DNA from: Bellilinea caldifistulae
GTDB lineage: Bacteria > Chloroflexota > Anaerolineae > Anaerolineales > Anaerolineaceae
Direction of reading: 5' to 3'
DNA: 32,000 bases
Assembly: GCF_001306055.1 (NCBI RefSeq)
Contig: NZ_LGHJ01000017.1
Location: forward strand, 150,001 to 182,000
Below the pieces are notes generated by a model. It saw only the letters and a program-made list of their open reading frames with translations, ran no database searches and was not told the DNA's origin. Below, one piece after another: positions 2 to 31,109 of this stretch (within the stretch, counting starts at the first letter, position 1; each line of letters begins with the position of its first letter). A program made the translations under genes and the position numbers.

Positions 2-199
2 GTTGCCGCCGGAGCATTGGTCACAAAAGACGTACCGCCTTATTCGATTGTTGCTGGTGTTCCGGCGCGGGTGATCAAACTTCGTTTTGATAGTTTAGAA
101 ACCACTCTTGAACATGAGCGCATCCTCTACCCGCCTGAACAACGTTTGCCCGTAGATGTTTTGATTGAAAGTGTTCAATCCGTGTATGAAAAAGGCTGA
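2..199 (+). CDS. Hexapeptide-repeat (left-handed beta-helix) acetyltransferase, C-terminal fragment; the 5' end lies outside the window
   Basis: The open frame runs from the window edge. [29 protein letters not shown] is the typical last LbH turns plus C-terminal tail of sugar/xenobiotic O/N-acetyltransferases. Stop at 197-199. Confidence 0.6.
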
Positions 200-1331
200 A
201 CCCGCCAGCAAATTATCTGTAATGCTCGCCGGTCATTTACACCCACCGGTCGGGGGAATTTCCGCTTACTTTGCTGCATTGTTGAGTTCCTCTCTCCCCC
301 AACAGGTCGAACTCCACTTTGTCCAAACCACTTCACCGCAGCGACCGTTCCATCAGGCAGGAAAATTCACTTTTCCAAATCTGCTTACGGCTTTAACCGA
401 TTGCTACCAATTTACTCAGGCTGTTTTTTCCGTCCGACCTCAAATTGTCCACATCGCTACGGCGTTCGGCTGGTCGTTCATCAAGCACTCATTCTGCGTG
501 CTGATTGCCAAAGCGGCCGGCTGCCGGGTTCTGCTTCATCCCCATTGCAGTTTTGCCGCCATGTACAGCAATCATTCGTCCATTTGGAAGTTCATCTTTC
601 GTTTTCTCATCCGCTTCCCCGATGCAGTGTTGATTCTTTCGTCGGAGTGGATGCAGCTCCGCGAAATATGCCCAGCCTGCAAAACCTATTTGCTCCACAA
701 CGCCATTGATTTAAGGCCATATCTGCCGCTTGCCAACGACCGAATCACCCAGCCCCATACCTCTTCACCAACTCAGATACTCTTTCTGGGTCACATTGGA
801 AAGGCGAAAGGTTCTTTTGTGCTGGTTGAAACCGCCAGGATCTTAAAGAAAAAAGGAGAGGTCTTCTTCATCCATCTGGTAGGGTCAGAACTGACTAAAG
901 GTGAAATCGTTTACCTGCAAAAAGTGATTGAAGAAAACCAGATGGAGGAGGTAATCCAAATTCACCCGCCTGCGTTTGAAGAGCAAAAATTTGAATTTTT
1001 CAGGCAGGCGGATGTGTTTGTTTATCCCTCCTTCCACGAAGGCATTCCCATGGCTGTCATCGAGGCAATGGCTTGTGGGCTGCCGGTTGTTGCAACCCGC
1101 GTTGGCGGACTACCAGATTTGATTCAGGAGGATGTCAACGGATTTTTAGTCCCGCCCGGTCGGCCTGATGCACTGGCCGATAAAATTGCTCTTTTGATTC
1201 GGGATGTCCCTCTCCGCCAGAAAATGCAGCGCGAGAGTTATCGTCTGGCTCAAAATCAATTTGAGATAGAGCAGCATGTAGAGAAACTGGTGCGTATCTA
1301 TCGTACGCTTTTGCAAACAAACCAGCAATAA
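186..1331 (+). CDS. Glycosyltransferase family 4 (GT-B, retaining)
   Basis: C-terminal GT4 signature: [57 protein letters not shown]. The ORF opens at TTG 165, but ATG 186 is the first ATG and overlaps the upstream stop. Confidence 0.85.
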
Positions 1332-1365
1332 CCCAATTCAACCGATTCATCTTTTCTATAAACAA

Positions 1366-2631
1366 TTGGACTGGAAATTGAAAATCCTGATGCTCGTTCC
1401 CCATTATGAACCCGACCTCGGCCCCAGTGCGCCGTTATTCACCCTGCTAAGCACCGAACTGGCCAAGCGAGGTCATCATGTCTGTGTGCTGACCACTGTT
1501 CCCCATTACCCCAGCGGCATCGTCCCCCCTTCTTTTCGGAAAAAGCCGATTCAGCTCTCCATCGAAAATGGTGTGGAAATTTATCGGATTCGCGTGCCTT
1601 CCATGGATCGCTCCCGTCTGACCGCCCGAATGCTGCAATTCATTGCCTTTCAATGGGGTGCGACCATCAAGGGTTTATCGCTTAAGTACGATGTGGTCTT
1701 TGCTGCTAACCCGGCATTGTGGGTCTGGCTTCCCTTTACCTGCCTTTCCGTTCTACGCCGAAAACCGGCTGTCTTTTCCGTTTATGACCTTTACCCAGAT
1801 GTGGGAGTTCAATTAGGAATCTTTCGCAGCCAACTCGTCATTGAGATGGTTGGATTGCTGGAAAAATTTTGTTTGCGTCATTCCGCCATTGTACGCATCA
1901 TCTCGGAATCTTTCAGAAGTAGCATCCGCCGCTTTGGTATCCCGGACTCGAAAATCCGCTTGATACCGGACTGGGTGGACACGGAACTTATTCGCCCCCT
2001 GCCGCATCAAAATTCCTTCACAAGCCAGTACGGTCTGAACGGCCGCTTCATCATTCAGTATGCCGGTAACATCGGATTTTCGCAAGGTCTGGAGCAGATT
2101 CTCGAAGCTGCCCAATCACTGACAAAGTATCCGGAGATTCTGTTTGTGCTGGTGGGAGATGGCAGTGGTAAAGAAAAACTTCAGCAGGATGCACAAAAGC
2201 GCAACTTAACCAATCTTCGCTTCATCCCTTTTCAACCCCGCCAACGATTAGCCGAAGTGCTGGCAGCCGCAGACGTGTCTCTGGTTGTACTAAAACCAGG
2301 GGTAGCCTACACCGCCATGCCCTCCAAAATCCTTTCTATTTTGGCAAGCGGCAGACCCATCATTGCCTGTGTGGATCAGGACAGCGAAACATGGAATTTC
2401 ATCCAGCGGACGGGTGCAGGGCTGTGTGTTTGGCCTGACAAGCCTGAAGAATTTATTCAGGCTATCCTGACTCTCCACTCAAATCCTGATCTGCGCAGCC
2501 AAATGGGCTGCATCGGCAGACAATGGGTATTGCAAAACCACACCCCTGCCGTTGCCGCGGCAACCATGGAGCGTCTGTTTTTATCCATACTGCGCTATTC
2601 TCACCCAAAACCCCAAACCATTTCCTCTTGA
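1366..2631 (+). CDS. Glycosyltransferase family 4, WcaI-like
   Basis: The N-terminus KILMLVPHYEPDLGPSAPLFTLLSTELAKRGHHVCVLTTVPHYPSG is typical of WcaI-type GT4 enzymes, with the C-terminal SKILSILASGRPIIA motif. Start is TTG 1366 or TTG 1378. Confidence 0.85.
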   Translation: MDWKLKILMLVPHYEPDLGPSAPLFTLLSTELAKRGHHVCVLTTVPHYPSGIVPPSFRKKPIQLSIENGVEIYRIRVPSMDRSRLTARMLQFIAFQWGATIKGLSLKYDVVFAANPALWVWLPFTCLSVLRRKPAVFSVYDLYPDVGVQLGIFRSQLVIEMVGLLEKFCLRHSAIVRIISESFRSSIRRFGIPDSKIRLIPDWVDTELIRPLPHQNSFTSQYGLNGRFIIQYAGNIGFSQGLEQILEAAQSLTKYPEILFVLVGDGSGKEKLQQDAQKRNLTNLRFIPFQPRQRLAEVLAAADVSLVVLKPGVAYTAMPSKILSILASGRPIIACVDQDSETWNFIQRTGAGLCVWPDKPEEFIQAILTLHSNPDLRSQMGCIGRQWVLQNHTPAVAAATMERLFLSILRYSHPKPQTISS

Positions 2632-2685
2632 ATTCTCTACGCCGCCTGAAAACCCTTAGCCTGGCATCCTCATCTGGTTCTACCC

Positions 2686-3345
2686 TTGAATAATCCCACC
2701 TTAGCCAGAACTTCTTTCTGGATCTTATGGAGTTTGCTGATCCTCATCTTTGCTTCGCTGCTTGTTTTCTATCCTGTTTTTTTGAAAGCAATCGGGGAAT
2801 TTCTGATTATCGAGGACCCGCTCACCCATGCCGATGTGATCCATGTGATTGCTGGTGAGGACTACCGTACCCAATACGCCATCCAACTTTATCAGCAAGG
2901 ATACGCCGACTCTCTGTTTTTCACCGGAGGTTGGTGCGATAAGCACCAGTGGGAGCACGGCGTACATGCCCGGCAAATGGCAATTGCGCAGGGCGTACCC
3001 CCTCAGTCCATTGGAAGCGACGATTCACCGGTGACGAGCACCTATTCTGAGGTGCAAAATCTTAAGAAGTGGGTCATCTCCCAGCCGGCTTCGCTTCACA
3101 CCATTATGGTAGTCAGTGATCCCTATCACATGCGCAGGGCAAAATGGACTTATCAGATTGTGTTTGGAAAAGAATTCACCATTCTGATGGCACCGGTACC
3201 ATTCGACCAGACTCCCTATCGGCAGGAATGGTGGAAAGATGCGGAAACCCGACATTTTGTCATGGAGGAATATCTCAAAATTTTGTATTACCTGCTTCGC
3301 TACGGATTGTCCATTCAATGGCTTGAAATTCTGGATACGGAATAA
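2686..3345 (+). CDS. DUF218 / YdcF (SanA/ElyC-like) family membrane-anchored protein
   Basis: N-terminal TM helix (FWILWSLLILIFASLLVFYPVF), then IHVIAGEDYRTQYAIQLYQQGYADSLFFTGG and VVSDPYHMRRAKWTY, the conserved DUF218 core. TTG start. Confidence 0.7.
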   Translation: MNNPTLARTSFWILWSLLILIFASLLVFYPVFLKAIGEFLIIEDPLTHADVIHVIAGEDYRTQYAIQLYQQGYADSLFFTGGWCDKHQWEHGVHARQMAIAQGVPPQSIGSDDSPVTSTYSEVQNLKKWVISQPASLHTIMVVSDPYHMRRAKWTYQIVFGKEFTILMAPVPFDQTPYRQEWWKDAETRHFVMEEYLKILYYLLRYGLSIQWLEILDTE

Positions 3346-3347: not shown

Positions 3348-4292
3348 ATGAACGTTGAGATTTTTGCTGAATGGCTGCGCCGTCAAGGCCACCATATTTA
3401 CCAGACTGCCAGTAGTTACTGGTACGATGCCGGCCCGCGAGTACTGCAGTCTTTTCCATATCACTGGTTAATTCAACCATCTTCCCGTGAAATTCAAGAC
3501 CTGCTGTGGAAGAAGAACATCCTCGCCGTGCGCTTTTCTGCGCCGGTAAACTCCCCGACCGGAATGATCAGTTATCACGTTGTGCTGGAAGATCCAGAAT
3601 ATTGCCTTGAAAAACTGAAACCTCAGGCTCGCAACGGCATCCGCCGGGGTCTGGAAAATTGCCGAATAGAACAAATTTCTTTTGAGCGTCTGGCAGATGA
3701 GGGCTGGCAGCTTCAACGGGACACCCTGGAAAGACAAAACCGATTAAACAGCATGAAAAAAGAGCAATGGCAAAGGATTTGTCTGGCAGCGATTGGTTTG
3801 CCCTCTCTCACAACCTGGGCGGCACTGGTCAGCAGTGAGCTGGCCGCCGCCATCATCACCTGTCGGTTGGCTGATAAGGTATATGTGCCGTATGCGCTCA
3901 GCCGGAGTACCTTTTTAGGACTGCATGTCAACCAGGCTCTCTTCTACACCGCCTGTCGCGAGATAATGAGTGAGCCGGGTATAACCGGCATCTTCTTCAA
4001 TCTCCATTCGCTCGATGCTCCCGAAAGCGTGGACGAATTTAAGTTCCGTCTCGGCTTCACTGCAAAACCCGTTCGCCAGCAAATCATCTTCCACCCATTG
4101 GTGAAACCGTTGATTAACAAAACAACCTATCGAATCATTGTTTCACGCATTGAAAAAGATCCGCAAAATACTTTCTTGAGGAAAGTGGAAGGGATGATGC
4201 GTTTTTTCCTGCGGGGCAAACAACCGCTGGCAGACCAACCATGGCCGAAATGTCTTGAAAACGCCAGAGAGGAATGGCAGCCTATTCAATAA
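3348..4292 (+). CDS. FemAB-like / GNAT-fold (Acetyltransf_6-type) acyl- or aminoacyl-transferase, putative
   Basis: The pattern KPQARNGIRRGLENCRIEQISFERL ... ELAAAIITCRLADKVYVPYALS ... VDEFKFRLGFTAKPV resembles FemAB-related GNAT proteins common in EPS loci. ATG lies 3 nt after the upstream stop. Confidence 0.5.
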   Translation: MNVEIFAEWLRRQGHHIYQTASSYWYDAGPRVLQSFPYHWLIQPSSREIQDLLWKKNILAVRFSAPVNSPTGMISYHVVLEDPEYCLEKLKPQARNGIRRGLENCRIEQISFERLADEGWQLQRDTLERQNRLNSMKKEQWQRICLAAIGLPSLTTWAALVSSELAAAIITCRLADKVYVPYALSRSTFLGLHVNQALFYTACREIMSEPGITGIFFNLHSLDAPESVDEFKFRLGFTAKPVRQQIIFHPLVKPLINKTTYRIIVSRIEKDPQNTFLRKVEGMMRFFLRGKQPLADQPWPKCLENAREEWQPIQ

Positions 4293-4332
4293 AAACCAGC
4301 CGGATATTTATGCTTAAGTGAGATCAGAACAG

Positions 4333-4896
4333 ATGTTTAACGACCCGTACAGCCAGTGTCAGATTCCCGCTTTATCCAAAATCGCCGAAGGCGAACAAAA
4401 AGACACTTCCCTGCCTTTCCTCGTCCGCTTTAAGCGCCGATTCGCGAAGGTGTGGAATTACACAGTCAAGAACCGCCTGAAAAAAATTGATAAAACGCTC
4501 TCCAAAAAACACAAACTGAACACCACTGCCACAATTTTCCCGGAAAAGTTACAGGCAGGTGATTGGGTAAGGGTGCGACCGGCCGAAGACATCCAATCCA
4601 CACTGGACAGGTGGCATGAGTTGAAAGGATGTGCTTTCCTTTCCGAGATGTGGCAGTATTGCGGCACAACCCAACGGGTATTGGTACGCATGGAAAGATT
4701 TTTGGATGAGCGTGACTATAAGGTTAAAAAATGCAATGGAATTGTCCTGCTGGAAGGATTGATGTGCACGGGAACCCCGGTGTTTGGCCGGTGCGATCGG
4801 CGCTGTCACTTTTTCTGGCGGGAAGAATGGCTGGAAAAAATCAACTCAGAAGATCCTGTTTATGAGGCTGCCAATTCAAGCCGGAATCGAGAATAA
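4333..4896 (+). CDS. Hypothetical Cys-rich protein of unknown function (basic N-terminus, conserved-looking C-terminal domain)
   Basis: The 192-aa ORF has possible starts at GTG 4318 and ATG 4333. The C-terminal region reads GDWVRVRPAEDIQSTLD...YCGTTQRV...KKCNGIVLLEGLMCTG...GRCDRRCHFFWREEWLEKI. No family could be named from memory with certainty. Confidence 0.5.
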   Translation: MFNDPYSQCQIPALSKIAEGEQKDTSLPFLVRFKRRFAKVWNYTVKNRLKKIDKTLSKKHKLNTTATIFPEKLQAGDWVRVRPAEDIQSTLDRWHELKGCAFLSEMWQYCGTTQRVLVRMERFLDERDYKVKKCNGIVLLEGLMCTGTPVFGRCDRRCHFFWREEWLEKINSEDPVYEAANSSRNRE

Positions 4897-4899: not shown

Positions 4900-7029
4900 T
4901 TGAAATTTTCAATAAACCGATCTAACACCTTCCCCCACAGAGTACACCATAAAACCATAGAATCCCGATTTGGTCATTTTCTTTACCTTACACCTTCAAA
5001 AGAAAGACTTACGCAAGTGGTGCAGAGAACAATTTACCGCATCTTAAAACGAGCCATAGATATCCTGGCATCCGGCTTTGGTTTGCTGCTGCTTGCGCCC
5101 TTCTTTGGTTTGATTGCGATCCTCATCAAGCGAGATTCGCCCGGGCCGGTTTTCTTCTGGTGCACCCGCGCCGGCAGATATGGAAAACCGTTCCGCATGT
5201 TGAAATTTCGCACCATGTACGAACAGCCGAGCAGTTACCTGGGACCGCCAATCACCTGCCACGCTGATGAACGCATAACACCCATTGGCCGCTGGCTGCG
5301 GGACAGTAAAATCAACGAACTCCCCCAACTCTGGAATGTCTTGATCGGCGATATGAGCCTCGTTGGGCCGCGCCCGGAGGATATTCACGTTGTGGAGCAT
5401 TGGCCAGCCGATGCAAAAGATGAAATCCTCTCTATACGCCCGGGCATTACCAGCCCGGCAAGCATCCTCTATCACGATGAAGAACATCGAATTCGATCCG
5501 ACAATGTAATGGGGGAATACCTCCGGCAAATTCTTCCAGACAAAATGCGCCTGGATCGGCTCTATGTCCGCAACCAATCACTGACCGCAGATCTGGACAT
5601 TATATTCTGGACGCTGGCTATATTTATACCCATCCTTGCCAAAGCAAAAATACCTGAAAATCTTCTCTTTTTTGGCCCACTCTCCCGCCTTGTTCATCGT
5701 TACCTGAACTGGTTTGTGTTAGATCTCATTGTTTCGCTGTTTGCGTTTACGCTGGTCGGATTGATTTTCCAAAGCCAGTTGCCAGATTTTTGGGGTCTCC
5801 GTCAATTGTTCATTCTAGCCATCATCATGGCACTGACCTTCAGTGGGATCAATTTCTTGTTGGGATTCAATCGAATTGTCTGGCGATATGCCACTGCAAA
5901 TGACGGTATTAACCTTCTGGCTGCTACCTCCTTGTTATCTCTGGTGGTCTTGATCTTCAATCACCTCCAGGGAATGTACCGGTGGTTCGCTTTTCCGGCG
6001 CTGCCGTCGCAATTGATTTTGATCATGTGTATGCTGGCACAGATCGGTTTATTGACCAGCCGTTACCGGCTAAGATTGCTTTCGTCAATCTCGAGCCGAT
6101 GGCTGAAATGGCGAAGATACTCCACCGGTATTGGCGAAAAAGTGGTGATTGTCGGCTTGGGAGGAAGTTTCCATACGGTGGTTCAATTATTGAGAAGTGA
6201 AGCCTTTCGTTATGTGTTTCAAACTATCGGTGTAGTGGATGATAACGCCACCTCCGAGATTGGGATGTGGGTGGAGGAATGTCTTGTACTGGGCAGGACA
6301 TCTGATCTACCTGACTTGATTGAGAAACACGACATTGGCATCCTTTTTGTGGCGGATGAAAATATACCGGATGAAGTAAAGCAAATGATCTGCGGTCTGC
6401 GCCATACTCACAGCGACCTGCGAATTGCAATAGCCTCACAAATCCTTCAAAGGCTGGAACAACAAATGATTCAAGCCAGCCGCCGGCTGCCTGATCAACT
6501 TATCTGGTCACCCGATTCCACCTTCTACTTAACCCTGCACGATCCGTTAACGGAACTGCCCAACCAATACCTGTTTTGCAAAGAGCTTCAACACGCCCTG
6601 GCATTCTCATCCAGATACCACACCACCCTGGCCATTCTTTTGATTCGACTGAATACAACTCTCCCGCGGGAGATCTGTCTCACCAAAGCAGAGACTTCAT
6701 CGTTGATGAAACAGGCAGCCCACCGGCTGATGACCCTCAAAAGAAAGAGTGATACCCTCGCCTGTCTGGGAGAGAACGAGTTCGGCTTAATCCTCGAAAA
6801 TCTTCTCAGCCCGAAAAACGTTATCCAAATTGCTCGTCGGATTAAACAAACACTCGCCGAGCCGGTCATCGTAAACAATCATTGTATCCAGTTGAGTGCT
6901 GAGATCAGTCTTTGCTCCAATTTCGAATCAGCCGAACAGATGGAACTGCCCAACCAACTACTCGACTGGATCTTGAAGCACCGTAAACCCCTTTCGTTTA
7001 CCCAGGAGGGCGTTTATGAACTGGGCTGA
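4900..7029 (+). CDS. Multidomain protein: bacterial sugar-transferase (phosphoglycosyl transferase) domain, about 4 TM helices, Rossmann-like (WbaP CoA-binding-type) domain, and a degenerate GGDEF domain
   Basis: PGT motifs: KRAIDILASGFGLLLLAPFFGLIAILIKRDSPGPVFF, PFRMLKFRTM, INELPQLWNVLIGDMSLVGPRPE, RPGITS, DRLYVRNQSLTADLDIIFWTL. Hydrophobic helices at about aa 255-400. Rossmann-like region: KVVIVGLGGSFHTVVQLL...IGVVDDN...VLGRTSDLPDLIEKHDIGILFVA. GGDEF-like region: HDPLTELPNQYLF...RKSD-TLACL-GENEFGLIL. There is no ATG at the 5' end; the start is TTG 4900 or GTG 5017/5020. Confidence 0.85.
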   Translation: MKFSINRSNTFPHRVHHKTIESRFGHFLYLTPSKERLTQVVQRTIYRILKRAIDILASGFGLLLLAPFFGLIAILIKRDSPGPVFFWCTRAGRYGKPFRMLKFRTMYEQPSSYLGPPITCHADERITPIGRWLRDSKINELPQLWNVLIGDMSLVGPRPEDIHVVEHWPADAKDEILSIRPGITSPASILYHDEEHRIRSDNVMGEYLRQILPDKMRLDRLYVRNQSLTADLDIIFWTLAIFIPILAKAKIPENLLFFGPLSRLVHRYLNWFVLDLIVSLFAFTLVGLIFQSQLPDFWGLRQLFILAIIMALTFSGINFLLGFNRIVWRYATANDGINLLAATSLLSLVVLIFNHLQGMYRWFAFPALPSQLILIMCMLAQIGLLTSRYRLRLLSSISSRWLKWRRYSTGIGEKVVIVGLGGSFHTVVQLLRSEAFRYVFQTIGVVDDNATSEIGMWVEECLVLGRTSDLPDLIEKHDIGILFVADENIPDEVKQMICGLRHTHSDLRIAIASQILQRLEQQMIQASRRLPDQLIWSPDSTFYLTLHDPLTELPNQYLFCKELQHALAFSSRYHTTLAILLIRLNTTLPREICLTKAETSSLMKQAAHRLMTLKRKSDTLACLGENEFGLILENLLSPKNVIQIARRIKQTLAEPVIVNNHCIQLSAEISLCSNFESAEQMELPNQLLDWILKHRKPLSFTQEGVYELG

Positions 7030-8005
7030 TCAAACAGTACTGGTAACTGGCGCTGGCGGCTTCATCGGAAGTCATCTGGTGGAAACGTTAGTTGGCAGGG
7101 GTGCTACCGTGCGGGCATGGGTGCGTTACAATTCCCGCGGCGACCCGGGGTTACTTAAGCTTTTATCCGGCGAAACTTTATCAAAAGTTGAAATTTTCAG
7201 CGGGGATCTCCTCAATCCCCATACTGCTCTCAATGCCGTGGAAGGATGCCAAATTATCTTTCATTTGGGTGCTCTCATTTCCATTCCATACTCCTACGCA
7301 CACCCCGATGAAGTCATCCAGACCAACCTTTTAGGGACATTAAACATTCTGATGGCGTGCCGGAAATCCGGCATTGAAAAATTGATTCATACCTCCAGCA
7401 GTGAGGTCTATGGAACTGCACGCTACGCGCCTATCAATGAGGAACATCCCCTGCAGGCCCAATCTCCCTACGCTGCCAGCAAAATTGGCGCGGACAAACT
7501 GGTTGAAAGTTTCTATCGCGCCTATGGCCTTCGGGTGGTGACTGTGCGGCCATTCAATACCTACGGCCCCCGCCAATCAGCCCGGGCGGTAATTCCTGCC
7601 ATCATCACTCAGGCACTGGTCAACAAAAAAATTCATCTTGGCAATGTAGAAACCAGCCGTGATTTCACTTTTATTACCGACACTGTGGCGGGGTTTATCC
7701 GCGCAGCCGAAACAAGCGGCATCGAAGGAATGGTGATAAATCTGGGATCCGGGCGAGAGATCCGCATCGGTGACCTGGTGCAATTAATCATTCAGAAAAT
7801 TGATCCATCAGTTGTTGTGGCAGTTGATCCGGAAAGGCTCCGACCGCTGAAATCCGAAGTCTTCCGGCTGATCTCCGACAATTCTCTTGCTGGCAAAGTT
7901 CTAGGCTGGCAGCCAACTGTATCCCTTGACGAGGGAATCAGCATAACAATTGATTGGATAAAACACCACCTGTATCTCTATCATATCGGAAGATATGAGG
8001 TTTAA
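7016..8005 (+). CDS. NAD-dependent NDP-sugar epimerase/dehydratase (extended SDR), likely a 4,6-dehydratase-type enzyme
   Basis: VLVTGAGGFIGSHLVETLV (GxxGxxG), SSSEVYG and YAASKIGADKL (catalytic YxxxK). Overlaps the upstream gene by 14 nt. Confidence 0.85.
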   Translation: MNWADQTVLVTGAGGFIGSHLVETLVGRGATVRAWVRYNSRGDPGLLKLLSGETLSKVEIFSGDLLNPHTALNAVEGCQIIFHLGALISIPYSYAHPDEVIQTNLLGTLNILMACRKSGIEKLIHTSSSEVYGTARYAPINEEHPLQAQSPYAASKIGADKLVESFYRAYGLRVVTVRPFNTYGPRQSARAVIPAIITQALVNKKIHLGNVETSRDFTFITDTVAGFIRAAETSGIEGMVINLGSGREIRIGDLVQLIIQKIDPSVVVAVDPERLRPLKSEVFRLISDNSLAGKVLGWQPTVSLDEGISITIDWIKHHLYLYHIGRYEV

Positions 8006-8015: not shown

Positions 8016-8732
8016 ATGAAAGCGGTCATTTTAGCGGGAGGTAAAGGAACACGGTTGGCACCCTACACCAAAATACTGCCAAAGCCGTTGATGCCGATTG
8101 GGGATATGCCCATTCTGGAAGTGATTTTACGGCAATTAAGTTGGGCCGGCATCCATGAAGTCATATTGACAGTTGGGCACCTTTCTGAATTATTACGTGC
8201 TTTCTTTCAGGATGGGAGTCGTCTGGGCATTCAAATTGAGTACTCTTATGAAGATACCCCTCTGGGAACTGCCGGCCCATTAGCGCTGGTTGAGGGTCTG
8301 GATGAAACCTTTTTAGTGTGCAATGGGGATGTACTTACCGACTTGAATTTGTGCGAACTGATTCAATTCCACAAGAAAGAAAAAGCGGTGGCTACTATTG
8401 CAGTACATCATCGTCAGGTCAAAATTGACTTTGGAGTCATTGAATGGAACGAGAAACCTCATATTGCCTGTTACATTGAAAAACCAACCATCGATTACAT
8501 GGTCAGCATGGGAATTTATGTGTTTGAGCCCGCAGTTTTGAAGTACATCCCACGCGGTCAGTATCTGGATTTTCCAGATCTGGTCAAAATTTTATTGGCT
8601 GCCGGCGAAAGAGTGGTCGGTTATCTGTTCGAAGGATACTGGCACGATCTTGGTCGGCCAGATGATTACGAACATGCAACCGCTGATTTCGAAAAGATGC
8701 GTTCACAGTTCTTTCACGAGACAAATCCATGA
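8016..8732 (+). CDS. Sugar-1-phosphate nucleotidyltransferase (NTP_transferase family)
   Basis: The N-terminus MKAVILAGGKGTRLAPYTKILPKPLMPIG is the canonical nucleotidyltransferase signature. A GAGGTG Shine-Dalgarno (SD) sequence lies upstream. Confidence 0.85.
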   Translation: MKAVILAGGKGTRLAPYTKILPKPLMPIGDMPILEVILRQLSWAGIHEVILTVGHLSELLRAFFQDGSRLGIQIEYSYEDTPLGTAGPLALVEGLDETFLVCNGDVLTDLNLCELIQFHKKEKAVATIAVHHRQVKIDFGVIEWNEKPHIACYIEKPTIDYMVSMGIYVFEPAVLKYIPRGQYLDFPDLVKILLAAGERVVGYLFEGYWHDLGRPDDYEHATADFEKMRSQFFHETNP

Positions 8733-9877
8733 ATTGGAAAGTACCGCTTGCCGACCTGGATATTGGCACCGATGAGATTTTGGCAGTTCAAAAAGTGCTG
8801 GAAAGCCGTTGGCTGACCATGGGTTCAGTCACCCAGCAATTTGAACAGGAATTTGCCAAAAAAATTGGTGCCCGTCACGCTTTTGCCGTAACCAATGGCA
8901 CGGCCGCTCTGCACCTCGCCTGTCTGGCGCTGGGACTTGGCCCGGGAGATGAGGTCATTGTCCCCTCACTGACCTTCGTGGCTTCCGCCAACGCCATTCG
9001 TTACACCGGTGCAACCCCCGTTTTTGCCGAGATTGTCAGTCCAAAAGACCTTAACATCTCACCGGTTGCCGTCGAAAAAAGGATCAACCCGCGCACCAGG
9101 GCAATTATGGTCGTTCATTATGGCGGTTATGCCTGCGACATGACCGCCATTCAGACCATTGCCGAAAGACACAATCTAAAAATCATCGAAGATGCCGCTC
9201 ATGCTGTGGGTGGTGAATTGGAGGGGACAGCGCTGGGATGCTGGGGAGAGATTGGATGTTTTAGTTTTTTCTCCAACAAAAACATGACCACCGGCGAAGG
9301 CGGCATGGTTGTGACCAATGATGATGAACTGGCTGACCGGCTGCGCTTATTACGCTCTCATGGCATGACCACCCTTACGTGGGATCGTCATCAGGGGCGC
9401 GCCATAGATTACGATGTGGTGATGCTCGGTTACAACTATCGGCTGGACGAAATTCGATCCGCAATTGGGCTGGTTCAATTAAACAAACTGGAGAAAAATA
9501 ACGAACAACGCCGAAAGCTCACCAGACACTATCACTCCATGCTCAAAAAGACACTGCCACAAGTGGAAACACCCTTTGAGAATTACCGCGGAAAAACTTC
9601 TGCTCATTTACTGCCGATTTTGCTGCCACAAGCCGCAAACCGCCGTAAGATCATCGAATTTCTCAAAAGCCGCGGAATTCAAACCAGCATCCACTATCCG
9701 CCTGTTCACCAATTCTCCATCTACCAACCGGATACCCGTCCTAACAATCCGGCACTTCCGATTACCGAAGAAGTTGGCCAAAGGGAATTGACTCTGCCAT
9801 TATACCCGGCCATGACCGGCGAGGATGTTGCGCTGGTGGTTAATACTCTTGGGGAGGCTCTGGAAGCCTTTAAGTAA
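8729..9877 (+). CDS. DegT/DnrJ/EryC1/StrS-family PLP-dependent NDP-ketosugar aminotransferase
   Basis: GTAALHLACLALGLGPGDEVIVPSLTFVASANAI, DAAHAVG, and FSFFSNKNMTTGEGGMVVTND (PLP lysine). ATGA overlap with the upstream stop. Confidence 0.9.
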   Translation: MNWKVPLADLDIGTDEILAVQKVLESRWLTMGSVTQQFEQEFAKKIGARHAFAVTNGTAALHLACLALGLGPGDEVIVPSLTFVASANAIRYTGATPVFAEIVSPKDLNISPVAVEKRINPRTRAIMVVHYGGYACDMTAIQTIAERHNLKIIEDAAHAVGGELEGTALGCWGEIGCFSFFSNKNMTTGEGGMVVTNDDELADRLRLLRSHGMTTLTWDRHQGRAIDYDVVMLGYNYRLDEIRSAIGLVQLNKLEKNNEQRRKLTRHYHSMLKKTLPQVETPFENYRGKTSAHLLPILLPQAANRRKIIEFLKSRGIQTSIHYPPVHQFSIYQPDTRPNNPALPITEEVGQRELTLPLYPAMTGEDVALVVNTLGEALEAFK

Positions 9878-13782: not shown

Positions 13783-13929
13783 TCAATTTCCTCCCGCAAT
13801 TCGAAATTAAGTTTATGATGAATTATCCCGATTATATCAAAATTAAAATCCCCTGTTGAAATAAAAGCCCCAAACAAGGTTTGGCTATAATTGATTCATC
13901 CACCTCAACATAAGTTTTTAAGAAAAAAC

Positions 13930-15918
13930 ATGATGAAGAAATCATCGCAATGGATTGCTACCCTTTCAGCATTTCTCATCCCCTTGCTGGTCATCGCCGG
14001 TTATTACGTAACCCACAAACCATTTGATCTGTCTTTTGCGCTTGCTTTCACGCTGATAATTTGGCGGCTTCTGCTGGCGGGATGGATTCTCTCGCTGGCT
14101 GGTGGCTTGGGAGCCCACCTCTTGCACCGCCTCCCCCTTCACCCGTTGGCCGCCCTCACCGTCCAGGCTACCGCCGGATTGGGTCTGCTCGCTCTGATCA
14201 TTTTACTCACGGGTGCCTTAATCGGCACAGCGCTTGGGTGGATGGCTGTCTTGATGATTGGCCTGTCCTTTCTGCTGCGCCGCTCGATCCGTGTTTGGCT
14301 TTTGGAATGGAAGGCCTGGCGCGAGGTCATTCAAGCCAGCAGTCCGGCTGAACGCTGGATCGGCGTGCTCATCGGGATTGCTCTTTCTGCTTCTCTTTGG
14401 ACGGCACTTGCTCCGCCGGTCAAGTACGATGCCCTTGTCTATCACCTGACCCTGCCGCAAGCCTACCTGGCTGCAGGTAAAATCACCCACGTGAGCTGGC
14501 TGATGATGAGCGGTTACCCCCAGAATGCAGAAATGCTCTACCTGCTGGCAATGGCACTGGGGGGCGCCTCGGCAGCCCCTGTTCTGGGGTGGGGTTTTGC
14601 TCTCCTGGGACTGGCTGGCCTTTTAGGCTGGCTGGTCGAAGCATGGGGCAGCCGGGCTGCCTGGACAGCCTGCGCCGCTTTATTTGCCGGCTCGACACTG
14701 GTTCTTTCCAGCGGCTGGGGTTATGTGGACTGGCTGGGTTTGTTATTTGGGCTGGGGTGTCTTATCTCGCTGGATATCTGGCAAAAAGAGGTTCGCCAAA
14801 GACGCTATTTGATGCTGGCTGGTGCATTCAGCGGCATGGCTATCGGCACGAAATATCCTTTTGGGATGCTGGCGCTGGTCGGGCTGGTGGTGATTGGGTT
14901 TCTCTTCCGCCGCTCGCTCCGCCAAATCTTTCGGCACTCATTGATTTTCTCGCTGGGGGTATTTTTGTTCGTCCTGCCGTGGCTGGCAAAAAACTATCTG
15001 TTTACCGGCAACCCGGTTTATCCCTTCTTCTTCCCGGCCGCCGATATGGACGAAATTCGCATTGCCATTTATTTTGAAGATGAACCCTACGGCGACTGGC
15101 GGGACGTGTTCCTGTTACCTTTGCGCGCCACCATTTGGGGAGTGGAAGGCGGGCCCGGCTACGGAGCCTCCATCGGGCCGTTGCTGCTGGGATTTGGATT
15201 GCTGGCCGGGCTCAACTGGCACAAGGGCAATGAACCACAAAGGCAAATCCTTCAACTGACAGCGGTATTTGTCCTTGCCACATGGTTCTTCTGGGCGCTG
15301 GGCGGGCGGTACACCGCCTATTTTCTTCAGACCCGCATGTTCTACCCCATGCTGCCGGCTTTCGCCGCCCTGGCTGGTATCGGTTTTCTCGCCGCCAGTT
15401 CGGTTCAAATTGGCTCAATACGTCTTCAGCGCGTCCTCACCGCCATGGTCATCATGGTACTGGCTTTCACCGCGCTGGAGGTTCAGCTGGATTTGCTCCG
15501 CCGATTCACGCCGCAGGCAGCCCTGGGTTTGCTGGAAACCGAAAAGTACCTCGAAAGAAATACCGGCTGGTATCAACCGGCCATGGAAGCCGTCCGCAGC
15601 CTGCCAGAAGACAGCCATACCCTTCTGATTTATGAACCGCGCGCATTCTACTGCCGACCCGTCTGTACACCGGATGAAAATCTCGACCGCTGGCGGCGCG
15701 ACTGGACGCGCAACCGTGATTTCAACGCCATTCGGCAGCAGTGGCAACAGGAAGGATTCACCCACCTGCTCGTCTTTCGTTCAGGTGTACAATTTATGAA
15801 AGAAAACCCCGATCCCAAACACCCCATGGCAAGTCTTACGGCGCTGGAAGAATTTCTCACCACCCTGCCGGTTGTGGAGGATTTTGGGGAGGTGTATCAG
15901 TTATACTTGTTGAAATAA
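13930..15918 (+). CDS. Polytopic membrane protein, GT-C fold glycosyltransferase-like (ArnT/PMT, GT39/GT83-like), with a C-terminal soluble domain
   Basis: At least 12 predicted hydrophobic helices, an early loop YDALVYHLTLPQAYLAAGKI, and a soluble tail of about 130 aa. The ORF opens at TTG 13891; ATG 13930 (MMKKSSQW) is preferred because a TATAAT box sits at 13886-13891. Confidence 0.65.
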   Translation: MMKKSSQWIATLSAFLIPLLVIAGYYVTHKPFDLSFALAFTLIIWRLLLAGWILSLAGGLGAHLLHRLPLHPLAALTVQATAGLGLLALIILLTGALIGTALGWMAVLMIGLSFLLRRSIRVWLLEWKAWREVIQASSPAERWIGVLIGIALSASLWTALAPPVKYDALVYHLTLPQAYLAAGKITHVSWLMMSGYPQNAEMLYLLAMALGGASAAPVLGWGFALLGLAGLLGWLVEAWGSRAAWTACAALFAGSTLVLSSGWGYVDWLGLLFGLGCLISLDIWQKEVRQRRYLMLAGAFSGMAIGTKYPFGMLALVGLVVIGFLFRRSLRQIFRHSLIFSLGVFLFVLPWLAKNYLFTGNPVYPFFFPAADMDEIRIAIYFEDEPYGDWRDVFLLPLRATIWGVEGGPGYGASIGPLLLGFGLLAGLNWHKGNEPQRQILQLTAVFVLATWFFWALGGRYTAYFLQTRMFYPMLPAFAALAGIGFLAASSVQIGSIRLQRVLTAMVIMVLAFTALEVQLDLLRRFTPQAALGLLETEKYLERNTGWYQPAMEAVRSLPEDSHTLLIYEPRAFYCRPVCTPDENLDRWRRDWTRNRDFNAIRQQWQQEGFTHLLVFRSGVQFMKENPDPKHPMASLTALEEFLTTLPVVEDFGEVYQLYLLK

Positions 15919-15939: not shown

Positions 15940-18432
15940 ATGGCGCTTTCTAAGGACGGCCTGTTTTATCTGGGCAAGCAATACGACCCGGTCGAGAAAA
16001 AACTACTGGATCAGCCCATTCTGTACGAGCCAGCTGATCTGACCACCCACGCTGTCGTTACCGGCATGACCGGCTCCGGTAAGACCGGGTTATGCGTGGG
16101 GTTACTGGAGGAAGCCGCTTTGGAAGGCATCCCGGCTATCATCATTGACCCAAAAGGTGATCTGACCAACCTCCTCCTGCACTTTCCAGATCTGCTGCCG
16201 ACCGACTTTGAACCGTGGATTGACCCCGAAAACGCCCGGCGCGAGGGAAAAACCACTCAACAACTGGCTGAGGAAACCGCCGAGCGCTGGAAAAACGGGC
16301 TGGCAGAATGGGGCTTAGGCCCCCAGCAAATCAGCGAGCTGAAAGACGCTGTGGACTTTGGTTTGTACTCCCCCGGTTCATCGGCAGCAACACCGGTCAA
16401 CATTCTTTCCTCGTTCGAGTCTCCGGATCTGCCATGGAACGAGAACCGCGAAATCCTGCGCGAAAAAATCTCCACCATCATTACCGCACTGCTGGGGCTG
16501 ATTGGATTCAACGACATAGACCCCCTGCGTTCCCGCGAGCACATCCTCCTCTCCAACATCCTGGAACACGCCTGGAGCAGTGGCAAATCGCTCGACCTGA
16601 CCGAACTGATCTTACAAACTCAAAAACCGCCATTTGACCGGCTTGGAGCTTTTCCGGTGGACAACTTTTTCCCCGAAAAAGACCGCCTCTCGCTGGCGAT
16701 GCTGCTCAACAATTTTCTCGCCTCGCCGTCCTTTGAAATATGGCGCGAAGGCCAGCCCTTGAGCATCGAAAGGCTGCTCTACAGTCCGGATGGCAAGGCG
16801 CGCCATAGTATCTTCTATCTGGCCCACCTGAGCGAAAGCGAGCGGATGTTCTTTGTTACCCTTTTGTTTGCCTCAATTGAGTCGTGGATGCGCAATCAGC
16901 GCGGCACGGGCAACCTGCGTGCCATCATTTACATGGATGAAATTTACGGCTACCTGCCGCCGCTGGGCAACCCTCCCTCGAAAACCATCATGCTACGCAT
17001 GTTAAAACAGGCCCGCGCTTTTGGGGTGGGGCTGTTGCTCGCCACTCAAAACCCGGTGGATGTGGACTATAAGGGTTTATCGAATGCCGGCACATGGATG
17101 ATCGGCCGTCTGCAAACTGATCAGGACAAACAACGTCTGTTGGATGGACTGGACTCAGCAGGCGGCGGCGTCAATCGCCAGGAGATGGACCGCCTGATTT
17201 CCACGCTGGGCAAACGCGTATTTGTCCTGCACAGCGTTCACGCCAAAAAACCGGTTTTGTTCCAAACCCGCTGGGTGCTGAACTTCCTGGCCGGCCCGTT
17301 GACCCGCGCTCAACTGCCAGCTCTGATGCCGCTGACCAGCACACCTCCGACCCCAACGGCAGCATCGCCACAGACCGGCGGCGAAACTGCCGCCAAACGA
17401 CCCGGTACGCCCACAGCCGCTACCTCAACCTCGACTTACACGGCCGTCCGTCCTCCCGTTCCCAGCGGAGTGGAGGAATATTTCCTGCCCAATGATCTAC
17501 CCCTATCCGAAGCCATCCGGCAGGCGGGTATTCCGGCCTCCGCCCAGATTGAGCAAAAAGGATTTGTCTACCATCCGGCCTTGTTTGCACAGGCGACCAT
17601 CAACTACCTGGCGCGCAAATACAACCTCGAACTCAACCGTGAGGTTACCGCGCTGGTGCAAGAACCGCGCGGCCGCTCGATTGAGTGGGATGACTGCCCG
17701 TGGCGCAGTTTCCAACGGAGCGAAATCACCACCGACCCGCTGCCCTCTGCCCAGTATGCTCCCCTGCCGGGTTGGCTGACTGATGCCCGCCAGTTGAATG
17801 CTTACCAGCAGGAATTCATCGAATGGGTCTACCGGAACGCCACCATCCGCTTGCGCGCCAATGAAAAACTGAAAGTCTATGCTCCACCGGAAGTCTCCAC
17901 CGCCGAATTTCGCGAGCAATGCGCCCAGGCAGCCCGCTCGGCTCTGCAAGGTGAAGTGGATAAACTGGAAAATCTCTATCAGAAAAAAATCGAAGACCTG
18001 AATCGAAAAATCGAGCGGGCAAAGAGCGATGTGGATGATAAGGAAAACACCTACAAACAGCGTCAAATGGAGGAGTTAGCCACCCACGGACAATCTTTGA
18101 TGAACCTGTTCGGAAAGCGGCGCGCCACTCTCTCCAGTTCTATGACCAAACGGCGTCTGACCAGCGAGGCCAAAGACCGGCTGGAAAAAGCCCGGCTGGC
18201 TCTGGAACAATTACAAAAACAGCTCAAAGATGTCGAAGCCGAGAAAAACCACGAAATAAAACAACTTCAAGATCGCTGGGCAGATGTCGTCAACGATGAG
18301 ATGGAAATTCCGCTCACCCCTTACAAAAAAGATATTTTCGTCCAGCATTATGGTATCATCTGGATGCCGTATTATACCCTGCTCGTGGACCAGCAGGTAA
18401 GGGAAATCCCCGCTTTCCGCAAGCCTGCCTGA
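15940..18432 (+). CDS. HerA/FtsK-superfamily P-loop NTPase, YjgR (DUF853/DUF87)-like, with a long C-terminal extension including a coiled coil
   Basis: Walker A in HAVVTGMTGSGKTGLCVGLLEEAALEGIPAIIIDPKGDL; Walker B-like IIYMDEIYGY; ATQNPVDVDYKGLSNAGTWMIGRLQTDQDKQRL. A P/T/A-rich linker at about aa 480-510 and a heptad-rich region at about aa 650-790. GAGGAGG SD sequence upstream of the ATG. Confidence 0.8.
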   Translation: MALSKDGLFYLGKQYDPVEKKLLDQPILYEPADLTTHAVVTGMTGSGKTGLCVGLLEEAALEGIPAIIIDPKGDLTNLLLHFPDLLPTDFEPWIDPENARREGKTTQQLAEETAERWKNGLAEWGLGPQQISELKDAVDFGLYSPGSSAATPVNILSSFESPDLPWNENREILREKISTIITALLGLIGFNDIDPLRSREHILLSNILEHAWSSGKSLDLTELILQTQKPPFDRLGAFPVDNFFPEKDRLSLAMLLNNFLASPSFEIWREGQPLSIERLLYSPDGKARHSIFYLAHLSESERMFFVTLLFASIESWMRNQRGTGNLRAIIYMDEIYGYLPPLGNPPSKTIMLRMLKQARAFGVGLLLATQNPVDVDYKGLSNAGTWMIGRLQTDQDKQRLLDGLDSAGGGVNRQEMDRLISTLGKRVFVLHSVHAKKPVLFQTRWVLNFLAGPLTRAQLPALMPLTSTPPTPTAASPQTGGETAAKRPGTPTAATSTSTYTAVRPPVPSGVEEYFLPNDLPLSEAIRQAGIPASAQIEQKGFVYHPALFAQATINYLARKYNLELNREVTALVQEPRGRSIEWDDCPWRSFQRSEITTDPLPSAQYAPLPGWLTDARQLNAYQQEFIEWVYRNATIRLRANEKLKVYAPPEVSTAEFREQCAQAARSALQGEVDKLENLYQKKIEDLNRKIERAKSDVDDKENTYKQRQMEELATHGQSLMNLFGKRRATLSSSMTKRRLTSEAKDRLEKARLALEQLQKQLKDVEAEKNHEIKQLQDRWADVVNDEMEIPLTPYKKDIFVQHYGIIWMPYYTLLVDQQVREIPAFRKPA

Positions 18433-20589: not shown

Positions 20590-20620
20590 TGAGATGAAAA
20601 TTGTTTCGAGGTCTTTCCCC

Positions 20621-22018
20621 ATGCCCACACATATCTGGTGGATTCGCCGCGACTTGCGGTTGAAGGACAATCCCGCCCTCCACAGCGCCCTGCAAGGCGG
20701 GCACAGCGTCCTGCCGCTCTTTATCCTCGACCCGCGTCTGCTTAACACAGCCGCCGAAAACCGCCGGCACTTTTTGTTTAATGGCTTGCGTAGGTTAGAC
20801 GAAGACCTGCGTTCGCGCGGCAGCCGATTAATCGTCCGCAGCGGACTGCCGGAAGAGGTCCTGCCGGCTGTGGTAGCCGAAACCGGCGCCGACGGGGTAT
20901 TCGCCGAGGAAGACTACACCCCCTATGCCGTTCGCCGTGACGCGAACCTTGCCAGATACATCCCACTCCAGCGGGTTGTCGGTGTAACCGTCCACCATCC
21001 TGCGGCGGTGGTCAAGCCGGATGGCAGCCCCTACACTGTGTTTACCCCCTTCAGCAAAGCCTGGAAAGCCCTGCCGCTGCCCAAGCCACTACCTCCCATC
21101 CCAGACCATCTTCCCCCGCCGCCGTTCCTGCCAAGCGATCCCATTCCCCCAGCGCCAGAAAATGCTTACTTTCCGGCTGGCGAGGCCGAAGCCGAACGGC
21201 GATTATTGGAATTCCTGGATTCGGCTGTGTTTGCGTACGCCGATGACCGCAACCGGCTGGATGTAGATGGCACATCCCGTCTTTCCCCCTATCTCCGGTT
21301 CGGGATGATTTCCGCCCGCCGCGCCGCGGCCCTGACGATGGAAAAAATTCAACAGACGGCCGATCCCGCCGGGCGTAAAGGCGCCGAAACTTTCCTGAAC
21401 GAATTGATCTGGCGTGAGTTTTACAACGCCATTCTCTACCACTTCCCTCATGTTCTGCAAACCGCCTTCAACCCCGCCCTGCGCAATATCGAATGGCGGC
21501 ATGCACCCGCAGAACTGGCTGCCTGGCAACAGGGCTTGACCGGTATTCCGGTTGTGGATGCCTGTATGCGTCAATTGCTCACCATGGGCTGGATGCACAA
21601 CCGCGGACGGATGATTGTGGCCTCTTTTCTGGTCAAAGACCTGCTGATCAACTGGCAGGAGGGTGAACGCTGGTTCATGCGTCATCTGGTGGATGGCGAT
21701 CCGGCGGCCAACAACGGCGGCTGGCAATGGACGGCTGGAGTCGGCACGGATGCAGCTCCTTACTTTCGCATTTTCAACCCCATCCTGCAAAGCAAGAAGT
21801 TTGACCCCTACGGGCATTTCATCCGCCGCTGGCTGCCGGAACTGGAGCGTTTGCCGGATGAATACCTGCATGAACCGTGGCTAACGCCAGCCGAAATTCA
21901 GCGCAAAACCGGCTTCAAACCCGGCCGCGACTATCCGCTGCCGCTCGTAGATCACGCACAGGTGAAGGAACGCACCCTGCGCGCTTACCAACAATCCAAA
22001 CCACGGGAGGGAACATGA
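20621..22018 (+). CDS. phr: Deoxyribodipyrimidine (CPD) photolyase, class I
   Basis: IWWIRRDLRLKDNPAL, TSRLSPYLRFGMIS, NELIWREFY, and GWMHNRGRMIVASFLVKDLLINWQEGERWFMRHLVDGDPAANNGGWQW. The ORF opens at ATG 20594; ATG 20621 is preferred. Confidence 0.9.
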   Translation: MPTHIWWIRRDLRLKDNPALHSALQGGHSVLPLFILDPRLLNTAAENRRHFLFNGLRRLDEDLRSRGSRLIVRSGLPEEVLPAVVAETGADGVFAEEDYTPYAVRRDANLARYIPLQRVVGVTVHHPAAVVKPDGSPYTVFTPFSKAWKALPLPKPLPPIPDHLPPPPFLPSDPIPPAPENAYFPAGEAEAERRLLEFLDSAVFAYADDRNRLDVDGTSRLSPYLRFGMISARRAAALTMEKIQQTADPAGRKGAETFLNELIWREFYNAILYHFPHVLQTAFNPALRNIEWRHAPAELAAWQQGLTGIPVVDACMRQLLTMGWMHNRGRMIVASFLVKDLLINWQEGERWFMRHLVDGDPAANNGGWQWTAGVGTDAAPYFRIFNPILQSKKFDPYGHFIRRWLPELERLPDEYLHEPWLTPAEIQRKTGFKPGRDYPLPLVDHAQVKERTLRAYQQSKPREGT

Positions 22019-24739: not shown

Positions 24740-25351
24740 TTACAGGTCTTTGAGTCGGGTATACAGCCTTTTGAGCGAAGCCCGCACCAGCAAGGGTTTG
24801 CTAAAATCCGCGCGATGCTTCCAGATCGAAAGAACCAACAACAACACCCACACCACCCCCAGTAACCAATCAGGATGATACAGCCATAAAAACGCCCCCA
24901 GCACCCCCTCAGAGAAAACGACCACCCAACCGCTGTTCTCAAAAATTAAGTAAAAAAGCCCCATGGCCGCCCCCAGAATAAGAGGGGCTTCAAACAGGGT
25001 CAACCCGGTCCAAACCCCAAAAATGGAGGCAATGGCTTTACCGCCCTTCCCCCTCAAAAATGGTGAAAAAGCATGGCCGAGCGCTGGAGCGACAGCAATG
25101 GCGGCCATCCATGGCAAGCTCGGACGATCAAACCAGTAAACCCACCCAACCGGAACGGCGGCCTTCAATCCATCCAGTAAAATTGCCAGACCGCCCCACC
25201 ATCCCCCTCCGGCACGCACCAGGTTGGTAGCGCCCGGATTGCCATCCCCAAACCGGCGAATGTCGCGGTTCAGAAGAATTTTACCCAGCAACAAAGAATA
25301 AGGCACACTGCCCGATAAGAAGGCAAGTGCCAGCCAGAGCCATTCATTCAT
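24740..25351 (-). CDS. plsY: Glycerol-3-phosphate acyltransferase PlsY (acyl-phosphate dependent)
   Basis: GSVPYSLLLGKILLNRDIRRFGDGNPGATNLVRAGG, and GHAFSPFLRGKGGKAIASIFGV. About 5-6 TM helices. Starts 4 nt after the crtB stop. Confidence 0.9.
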   Translation of the reverse strand: MNEWLWLALAFLSGSVPYSLLLGKILLNRDIRRFGDGNPGATNLVRAGGGWWGGLAILLDGLKAAVPVGWVYWFDRPSLPWMAAIAVAPALGHAFSPFLRGKGGKAIASIFGVWTGLTLFEAPLILGAAMGLFYLIFENSGWVVVFSEGVLGAFLWLYHPDWLLGVVWVLLLVLSIWKHRADFSKPLLVRASLKRLYTRLKDL

Positions 25352-25355
25352 GCCC

Positions 25356-26267: not shown

Positions 26268-26309
26268 TCGGGAGCCTCCCATGGAATTAACTGATTAACC
26301 CTGAAATCA

Positions 26310-29867: not shown

Positions 29868-29877
29868 GAACCGATCC

Positions 29878-31086: not shown

Positions 31087-31109
31087 AAAAAACTCCTTGC
31101 TACAAAATT

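Follow-up and report, generated by a model that had tools for sequence, protein, structure and literature searches.

The 32,000-nucleotide stretch of the Bellilinea caldifistulae genome analyzed here (assembly GCF_001306055.1, contig NZ_LGHJ01000017.1, positions 150,001 to 182,000 of the forward strand; hereafter "the window") carries a polysaccharide gene cluster, and one gene of this cluster encodes a 709-residue protein in which a monotopic phosphoglycosyl transferase (PGT) domain is followed by four transmembrane helices (4TMH), a Rossmann-like accessory domain (the "DUF" of large PGTs), and finally a degenerate GGDEF domain. A preliminary description, made from the letters of the DNA and its open reading frames (ORFs), had already proposed this layout, and its ORF, protein length, and motif coordinates all proved exact, including the positions of HDPLTELPNQ (from nt 6538), KVVIVGLGG (residues 414-422), and IGVVDDN (residues 443-449). 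All three domain families that it had expected from profile searches were recovered in Pfam: Bac_transf (PF02397) at residues 50-242 with an E-value of 3.4e-53 and 180.3 bits against a cutoff of 27, GGDEF (PF00990) at residues 546-679 with an E-value of 9e-14 and 52 bits against a cutoff of 23.8, and CoA_binding_3 at residues 328-485 with an E-value of 8e-5 and 23.2 bits, slightly under the cutoff of 25, which several relatives do reach. The large-PGT model TIGR03025 of NCBIfam scores 248.5 against a cutoff of 295.55 and matches in two separate stretches.

The structural prediction agrees with this order. Our AlphaFold2 model, which begins at codon 40 and was calculated with a 117-sequence alignment as input (mean predicted local distance difference test score, pLDDT, 84), consists of a long N-terminal helix, a PglC-like domain, four long helices (model residues 221-250, 261-282, 294-321, and 331-350), a beta-alpha-beta domain, a stalk helix, and a GGDEF fold. 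The four helices, also seen in the hydropathy profile, bear out the expected "~4" transmembrane segments behind the PGT domain. Foldseek searches with the model identified PglC (8g1n, template modeling score 0.74 on the target) and also WbaP, as well as many GGDEF domains with scores of 0.75-0.79, and PleD and WspR could be aligned over the accessory domain plus the GGDEF domain, in the manner of Rec-GGDEF proteins. As to the start of the reading frame, gene callers place the start in close homologues at a GTG that corresponds to codon 40 (nt 5017); however, the 39 residues before it are kept in frame in an 83% orthologue (L011), and the TTG at 4900 is therefore a plausible start. A frameshift or chimeric-ORF artefact can be ruled out as the origin of the protein, since over 120 independent homologues have uninterrupted reading frames and share its length.

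The C-terminal domain has the fold but not the active site of a diguanylate cyclase. Throughout, conservation was counted in 121 aligned family sequences, and signatures and spacings in 123 relatives. The GG[DE]EF signature is found in 0/123 relatives; GFDKF is the commonest variant, and the protein of the window has GENEF. The segment RLNTTL aligns to "DLDRFK" and "DVDNFK" of solved cyclases in a column that is not conserved as Asp in the family, so that the signature of active cyclases and the metal-binding Asp of the first strand are both missing. The allosteric I-site shows the opposite behavior. R615 and D618 of the RKSD motif are each invariant (121/121), exactly five residues lie between D618 and G624, and the pattern RxxD-5-xxxxF is present in 121/123 relatives. 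On the following helix, position 647 is an Arg in 119/121 sequences, and in alignments with solved cyclases it falls on the Arg in "ARKL" and "LERI" (the "aeRi" helix); by our alignment, R647 would be the equivalent of PleD R390. Even in members with less than 30% identity (P0136, P0137, P0153, P0154, and P0186), the RxxD motif, its distance of five residues from a scrambled signature, and the distal Arg are all kept. The active site thus drifts freely while the allosteric site is frozen, and this is the pattern expected of a receptor for cyclic di-GMP (c-di-GMP), as had been suggested from the degenerate signature and the I-site geometry of the window protein. The GGDEF matches in Pfam and NCBIfam and the automatic names of the relatives ("diguanylate cyclase (GGDEF)-like protein", besides "sugar transferase") might suggest a sugar transferase linked to an active diguanylate cyclase, but with signature and metal site lost family-wide, and with a TIGR00254 score of 36.2 under the cutoff of 37.4, this is effectively refuted by the sequence, and we regard it as hardly conceivable.

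Further support for the receptor reading comes from relatives that carry other input domains on the same scaffold. P0165 (L016, 8001-10013), which lacks a GGDEF domain, has an N-terminal PilZ domain (26 bits, cutoff 22.5) with intact motifs, RxxxR at residues 5-9 and NxSxxG at residues 32-37. Its gene occupies the same operon position, with genes for Wzy and glycosyltransferases (GTs) upstream, and genes for a 329-residue dehydratase and a 236-residue nucleotidyltransferase downstream. In P0166 (L017, 1155-3185), a C-terminal receiver domain (E-value 1e-22) replaces the degenerate GGDEF domain. Both are PGT-4TMH-DUF proteins with the Asn-Glu dyad described below, and P0154 has an additional N-terminal GT2 domain. 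The use of two unrelated c-di-GMP-binding modules on orthologous proteins is the strongest evidence here for the predicted control by c-di-GMP, and the comparison as a whole points to a regulatory input, mostly c-di-GMP. The invariant I-site, the variable signature, and the PilZ-bearing orthologue in the same operon together give strong comparative support to the c-di-GMP receptor postulated in the preliminary description.

It has to be considered that the GGDEF domain could be merely a structural or dimerization module, or that it binds another guanine nucleotide (GTP, (p)ppGpp, or a GDP-sugar donor) without any c-di-GMP signaling. N555, presumably a guanine-contacting residue of the A-site, is largely conserved (116/121), PleD structures with ppGpp exist (9g85), and the dehydratase encoded next to the PGT gene most resembles LegB from the legionaminic acid pathway that uses GDP-sugars, so that guanine nucleotides may be relevant to the pathway. 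However, the strict conservation concerns the I-site triad and not the freely varying A-site, and c-di-GMP in particular is indicated by the PilZ fusion that an orthologous operon encodes. We consider such a role improbable.

At the N-terminus, the Bac_transf match and the PglC fold establish the PGT catalytic domain, and this domain is the most conserved region of the family, with 32% invariant columns and a mean identity to the query of 66%, in comparison to 33-42% in the other domains. Its dyad is unusual: "KINELPQL" aligns at high confidence to "SLDELPQL" of solved WbaP structures, which places Asn139 at the position of the dyad Asp, and Asn139 and Glu140 are each invariant (121/121). Das et al. 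in 2017 reportedly identified the Asp of the dyad as the nucleophile that forms a covalent intermediate. Our assignment of the nucleophile also draws on statements in two publications (PMC10519829; PMC12802240). The Asn-Glu pair is found in nearly all relatives with the permuted domain order, with or without GGDEF; P0262 and P0153 retain Asp-Glu, which is also the dyad of the five ordinary PGTs from the same scan (L005-L008 and L010). A relocation of the nucleophile to the family-specific motifs "PRPED" or "YHDEE" is unsupported, as two permuted relatives that retain the Asp, P0262 and P0153, also have PRPED/PRPDD, and their versions of the other clade motifs are closely similar. The remaining hallmarks of the active site are in place. 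K50, D54, and P67 do not vary among the 119 sequences that cover them (2 of the 121 are gapped), and D54 and P67 are the equivalents of D11 and P24 of PglC, the Asp and the helix-breaking Pro of the re-entrant helix; D231 and D233, at the position of the stabilizing D168 of PglC, are invariant (121/121), and so are R134 and R158, which together with K102 (120/121, one gap) correspond to the substrate-orienting R88, R111, and K59 of PglC (residue roles according to PMC12802240). The family thus has conserved counterparts of PglC K59, R88, E94, R111, D11, P24, and D168.

The genomic neighborhood suggests what the PGT domain may be used for. Directly downstream, three genes for an NDP-sugar dehydratase, a sugar-1-phosphate nucleotidyltransferase, and an aminotransferase follow in the same orientation (NDP, nucleoside diphosphate; Table 1); the dehydratase ORF begins 14 nt before the end of the PGT-GGDEF stop codon (7016-7029), the aminotransferase ORF start (8729) and the nucleotidyltransferase stop (8732) overlap by 4 nt, and these overlaps are consistent with translational coupling along an operon. 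The complete unit of PGT, dehydratase, nucleotidyltransferase, and aminotransferase genes is present in the window and at L001, L002, L003 (with a GGDEF-less member), L011, and L014, and a partial unit at L015, where an epimerase/dehydratase with 24% similarity takes the dehydratase slot, and at L016, whose contig stops at the third gene; the dehydratase is syntenic in the window, L001, L002, L003, L011, L014, and L016. These neighbors are more conserved than the PGT gene itself. The clusters furthermore contain nearby genes for Wzy_C, Wzz/tyrosine kinase (polysaccharide co-polymerase, PCP, kinase), a flippase, or GT4 enzymes. Within about 10 kb, no second Bac_transf gene was found in seven annotated clusters, and no WecA-type family was listed there. 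The operon link resembles that of pglC beside pglFED, and the gene context argues that the PGT really primes with the amino-dideoxy sugar made by its neighbors; the probable donor is an NDP-4-amino-4,6-dideoxy-hexose produced by the enzymes of the three genes downstream. A dedicated nucleotidyltransferase and a dehydratase of the LegB type could mean that the donor is not a UDP-sugar and possibly a GDP-sugar, and this is a lead only, as both family scores are under their cutoffs. Directly upstream lie two genes for conserved proteins of 314 and 192 residues, the latter Cys-rich, which had no match in Pfam, NCBIfam, or PADLOC. The same pair precedes the PGT gene at L011 and L013 and is fused to one ORF at L001 (8353-9903); it probably represents an accessory enzyme in two parts that belongs to the pathway, such as an acyltransferase acting on the 4-amino sugar.

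Table 1. Positions of the PGT-GGDEF gene, its domains and motifs, and the adjacent genes of the cluster (nucleotides of the window)
Feature	Position	Strand	Basis or remark
Two GT4 glycosyltransferases and a DUF218 protein, upstream part of the polysaccharide cluster	165..3345	+	
Two conserved proteins without recognised family, 314 aa and 192 aa (Cys-rich)	3348-4292, 4318-4896	+	directly upstream
Whole gene, PGT(Asn-Glu)-4TMH-DUF-degenerate GGDEF protein, 709 aa	4900..7029	+	TTG start
PGT domain, re-entrant membrane helix, aa 46-81	5035..5142	+	hydropathy, AlphaFold2 helix, conservation
Bac_transf (monotopic PGT) catalytic domain, aa 50-242	5047..5625	+	Pfam, PDB WbaP/PglC alignments, Foldseek
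Asn139-Glu140, position of the catalytic Asp-Glu dyad	5314..5319	+	alignments to WbaP/PglC
Four transmembrane helices, aa ~260-389	5677..6066	+	AlphaFold2 helices, hydropathy
Rossmann-like accessory domain (CoA_binding_3 / "DUF" of large PGTs) and stalk helix, aa ~410-530	6127..6489	+	Pfam, profile alignment
GGDEF-fold domain, catalytically degenerate, aa 546-679	6535..6936	+	Pfam, PDB matches, Foldseek
RLNTTL, place of the metal-binding DxDxFK strand, aa 583-588	6646..6663	+	alignment to solved cyclases
I-site RKSD (R615, D618), aa 615-618	6742..6753	+	conservation, alignment to RxxD of solved GGDEF domains
Degenerate signature GENEF, aa 624-628	6769..6783	+	motif scan of relatives
Arg647, distal I-site arginine	6838..6840	+	conservation, alignment to solved cyclases
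LegB-like NDP-sugar 4,6-dehydratase	7016..8005	+	TIGR04180 E 3e-120, under cutoff
Sugar-1-phosphate nucleotidyltransferase	8016..8732	+	
PseC/LegC-like NDP-4-keto-6-deoxy-sugar aminotransferase	8729..9877	+	

Based on these data, the question arises whether the PGT domain is a catalyst at all. The preliminary description had left open a priming enzyme or a priming-like scaffold, and it had overlooked the Asn at the position of the catalytic Asp; because of this residue, the scaffold is a live alternative. In this case, a non-catalytic PGT domain would still bind polyprenyl phosphate and/or an NDP-sugar, and the protein would serve as a c-di-GMP-dependent organizer or sensor that recruits or licenses the other enzymes encoded in the cluster, in the manner of PelD with PelF, with the priming step being carried out by a PGT encoded elsewhere. 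Several points indeed weigh against catalysis: the family-invariant Asn139 is found at the position of the nucleophile of characterized monotopic PGTs, the Asp-Glu dyad that is expected of this superfamily—and that has been described as common to all its members (PMC10519829)—is absent, and the "PGxTGxWQxxGR" motif of ordinary PGTs is replaced by a near-constant "RPGITSPASxxYxxEE" in the clade, a nucleotide-binding stretch unlike that of ordinary PGTs. Furthermore, the degenerate-GGDEF receptors PelD and BcsE are non-catalytic partners (PMC8461298). However, the PGT domain would then be a decaying active site that is nevertheless the best-conserved domain of the protein, with all other hallmark residues invariant, which is unusual, and neither the lack of any other candidate for the initiating enzyme in the seven annotated clusters nor the tight link to a dedicated sugar-nucleotide pathway would be expected. 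We judge the scaffold to be rather unlikely, albeit the main rival of the interpretation favored below.

The reversed order of the domains deserves a separate consideration. A family profile of residues 254-545 aligns with residues 141-250 of the ordinary large PGTs at L005 and L007, a region that in these proteins lies upstream of the catalytic domain, with the "DE" dyad near residue 360; the domain order is therefore reversed in comparison to WbaP-type large PGTs. The alignment, together with the CoA_binding_3-like match, bears out the earlier observation of a Rossmann-like domain behind and not before the catalytic domain. WbaP-like large monotopic PGTs have the four-helix bundle and the accessory domain N-terminal to the catalytic domain, whereas both modules are C-terminal to it here. 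A known counterpart is found in PglF-type dehydratases, which carry the same 4TMH and accessory module N-terminal to their catalytic domain (PMC10942596), and among the relatives, the 854-residue P0262 combines PGT, 4TMH, accessory domain, and a Polysacc_synt_2 domain and retains the Asp-Glu dyad, and it is in effect a PglC fused to a PglF-like dehydratase. In view of this architecture and of the PglF-type module, the "permuted" order may be best explained by the fusion of a small PGT ahead of a 4TMH-DUF-X protein, in which X is exchangeable. A true circular permutation of a WbaP-type gene is less likely than such a fusion, as the relatives have a PglF-like dehydratase, a receiver, a GGDEF domain, or nothing as X.

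Taken together, we favor—with guarded confidence, and on the basis of comparative sequence data—the interpretation that the protein acts as initiating (priming) transferase in a Wzx/Wzy-type polysaccharide cluster and contains its own c-di-GMP receptor. The monotopic PGT domain would be located at the cytoplasmic face of the membrane, followed by the four-helix bundle, the accessory domain, the stalk helix, and the GGDEF domain. The latter is no longer able to make c-di-GMP and has retained the allosteric I-site formed by R615, D618, and R647, to which c-di-GMP may bind, probably as an intercalated dimer. The signal could then be passed via the stalk and the dimer interface of accessory domain and transmembrane helices to alter the activity of the PGT domain, a route that is plausible because of the precedents of WbaP and EpsW-EpsZ (see below), and polysaccharide synthesis would be gated at its first membrane-committed step. 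This presupposes that turnover is still possible at the Asn-Glu site, where, for instance, Glu140 might be the nucleophile or the polyprenyl phosphate might attack directly. A more far-reaching version would hold for the whole clade: despite its Asn in place of Asp, the PGT would be the sole initiating enzyme of its polysaccharide clusters and would work without the Asp acyl-phosphate intermediate that is regarded as universal in the superfamily, and c-di-GMP would gate it via interchangeable fused receptors, either a GGDEF I-site or PilZ. We put this extension forward tentatively, as a conjecture about which we are more doubtful than convinced.

The family is sizable. The best 120 database clusters all combine Bac_transf and GGDEF, with 42-99% identity and lengths of about 650-715 residues, and their named sources are metagenome bins of Chloroflexota, Anaerolineae, or Anaerolineales. 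An exhaustive search with the C-terminal 455 residues identified 41 clusters (50% identity level) at E <= 1e-30, and many of the matches of this search are proteins of 500-590 residues with PGT, 4TMH, and accessory domain and without GGDEF. As a side observation, a truncated Asn-Glu member of the family with 46% identity was found on a 4 kb contig that is binned as Bathyarchaeota (L004, JAGTRI010000034.1); as the contig is short and the bin archaeal, a binning error is more likely than an archaeal homologue. The preliminary description had not recognized the domain order as a described architecture. Our literature search also found no description of a PGT-GGDEF fusion. The architecture is not rare, however, and defines a large Chloroflexota family whose annotation is automatic. 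Degenerate-GGDEF receptors with an I-site and large PGTs are each known kinds of proteins; what is new is the union of a PGT and a degenerate-GGDEF receptor on one polypeptide, in reversed order and with a clade-wide Asn-Glu active site.

[quoted passage not shown] If the clade-wide version of our interpretation is correct, this would be the first case in which c-di-GMP acts post-translationally on the priming step instead of on a synthase. In a PGT with its own c-di-GMP receptor, the second messenger would control the first membrane-committed step, for which undecaprenyl phosphate has to be taken from a limited pool. Such a fusion would offer a single-polypeptide system to study how a signal passes from the accessory/dimer interface to a monotopic PGT active site. 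The active site is otherwise intact and strongly conserved, and its invariant Asn at the position of the nucleophile calls into question the notion of an Asp-Glu dyad in all monotopic PGTs, and the Asn-Glu family can be regarded as a natural test of the covalent-intermediate mechanism. Moreover, the family is abundant in environmental Chloroflexota, in which surface glycans and biofilm regulation are almost unstudied.

Other parts of the window contain genes that we only briefly mention. A plus-strand pair encodes a 675-residue protein without family match (13891-15918) and an 830-residue HerA/DUF87-like ATPase (15940-18432) with weak matches to mad8/HerA in PADLOC. The first gene is kept at L001 and L011 and the ATPase gene at L012, and at L011 a DUF87 gene directly follows the homologue of the 675-residue protein; the pair may be a defense or DNA-translocation module. 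From 20594 to 24530 on the plus strand, genes for a DNA photolyase, a Rieske/VanA-like oxygenase, and a DPRP (photolyase-related) protein follow in a row, and the ORF of the oxygenase overlaps the 3' end of the photolyase gene by about 140 nt, which suggests that its GTG start at 21877 was called too early. The minus strand from 24740 to 31997 encodes PlsY, phytoene synthase, two phytoene-desaturase-like flavoproteins, a transporter of the major facilitator superfamily (MFS), and a MerR-type regulator with B12-binding domains, presumably of the CarH/LitR type of light-responsive regulators, and these genes look like a light-regulated carotenoid cluster.

When compared with known systems, the closest likeness on the receptor side is to PelD of the Pel system of Pseudomonas aeruginosa, and also to PopA and BcsE; PelD and BcsE are characterized c-di-GMP receptors with a degenerate GGDEF domain (PMC8461298). 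As in PelD, a membrane-anchored protein encoded in an exopolysaccharide locus has lost the cyclase signature and kept the RxxD motif, and it is predicted here to be a post-translational c-di-GMP receptor. In contrast, PelD has no enzymatic domain, its GGDEF domain is paired with a GAF domain, and it belongs to a synthase-dependent pathway, whereas the protein of the window has receptor module and PGT domain on the same polypeptide and is encoded in a Wzy/Wzz-type cluster. On the enzyme side, the protein shares the four-helix bundle, the CoA_binding_3-type domain, and the Bac_transf domain with its re-entrant helix with WbaP, WcaJ, CpsE, and EpsZ (TIGR03025/TIGR03022), and it differs from these in the catalytic domain being first, in the Asn at the position of the dyad Asp, in the appended GGDEF domain, and in its TIGR03025 score under the cutoff. 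PglF-like membrane dehydratases and bifunctional PGTs have the same 4TMH and accessory module, as exemplified by P0262, but X is a dehydratase there and a degenerate GGDEF domain here.

The accessory domain of WbaP binds uridine nucleotides, mediates dimerization, and has been implicated in nucleotide-dependent regulation, and together with the transmembrane bundle it constitutes the dimer interface (PMC10942596). Myxococcus xanthus has a response regulator, EpsW, that activates its large PGT EpsZ and has been proposed to promote EpsZ dimerization (PMC12802240). EpsW-EpsZ therefore resembles the system proposed here in that a signaling domain would control the priming enzyme of a Wzx/Wzy pathway post-translationally at the accessory/dimer interface, and P0166 even has a receiver domain fused in cis. 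In M. xanthus, however, regulator and PGT are separate proteins and phosphorylation serves as the signal, whereas in our case the PGT carries a fused sensor that is predicted to respond to c-di-GMP. Finally, BcsA-PilZ and Alg44-PilZ are examples of c-di-GMP modules that are fused to or partnered with a polymer-making enzyme, and P0165 likewise uses a PilZ domain with intact motifs; the enzymes in these systems are processive GT2 synthases, whereas it would be the polyprenyl-phosphate priming step that is addressed by the PGT-GGDEF protein.

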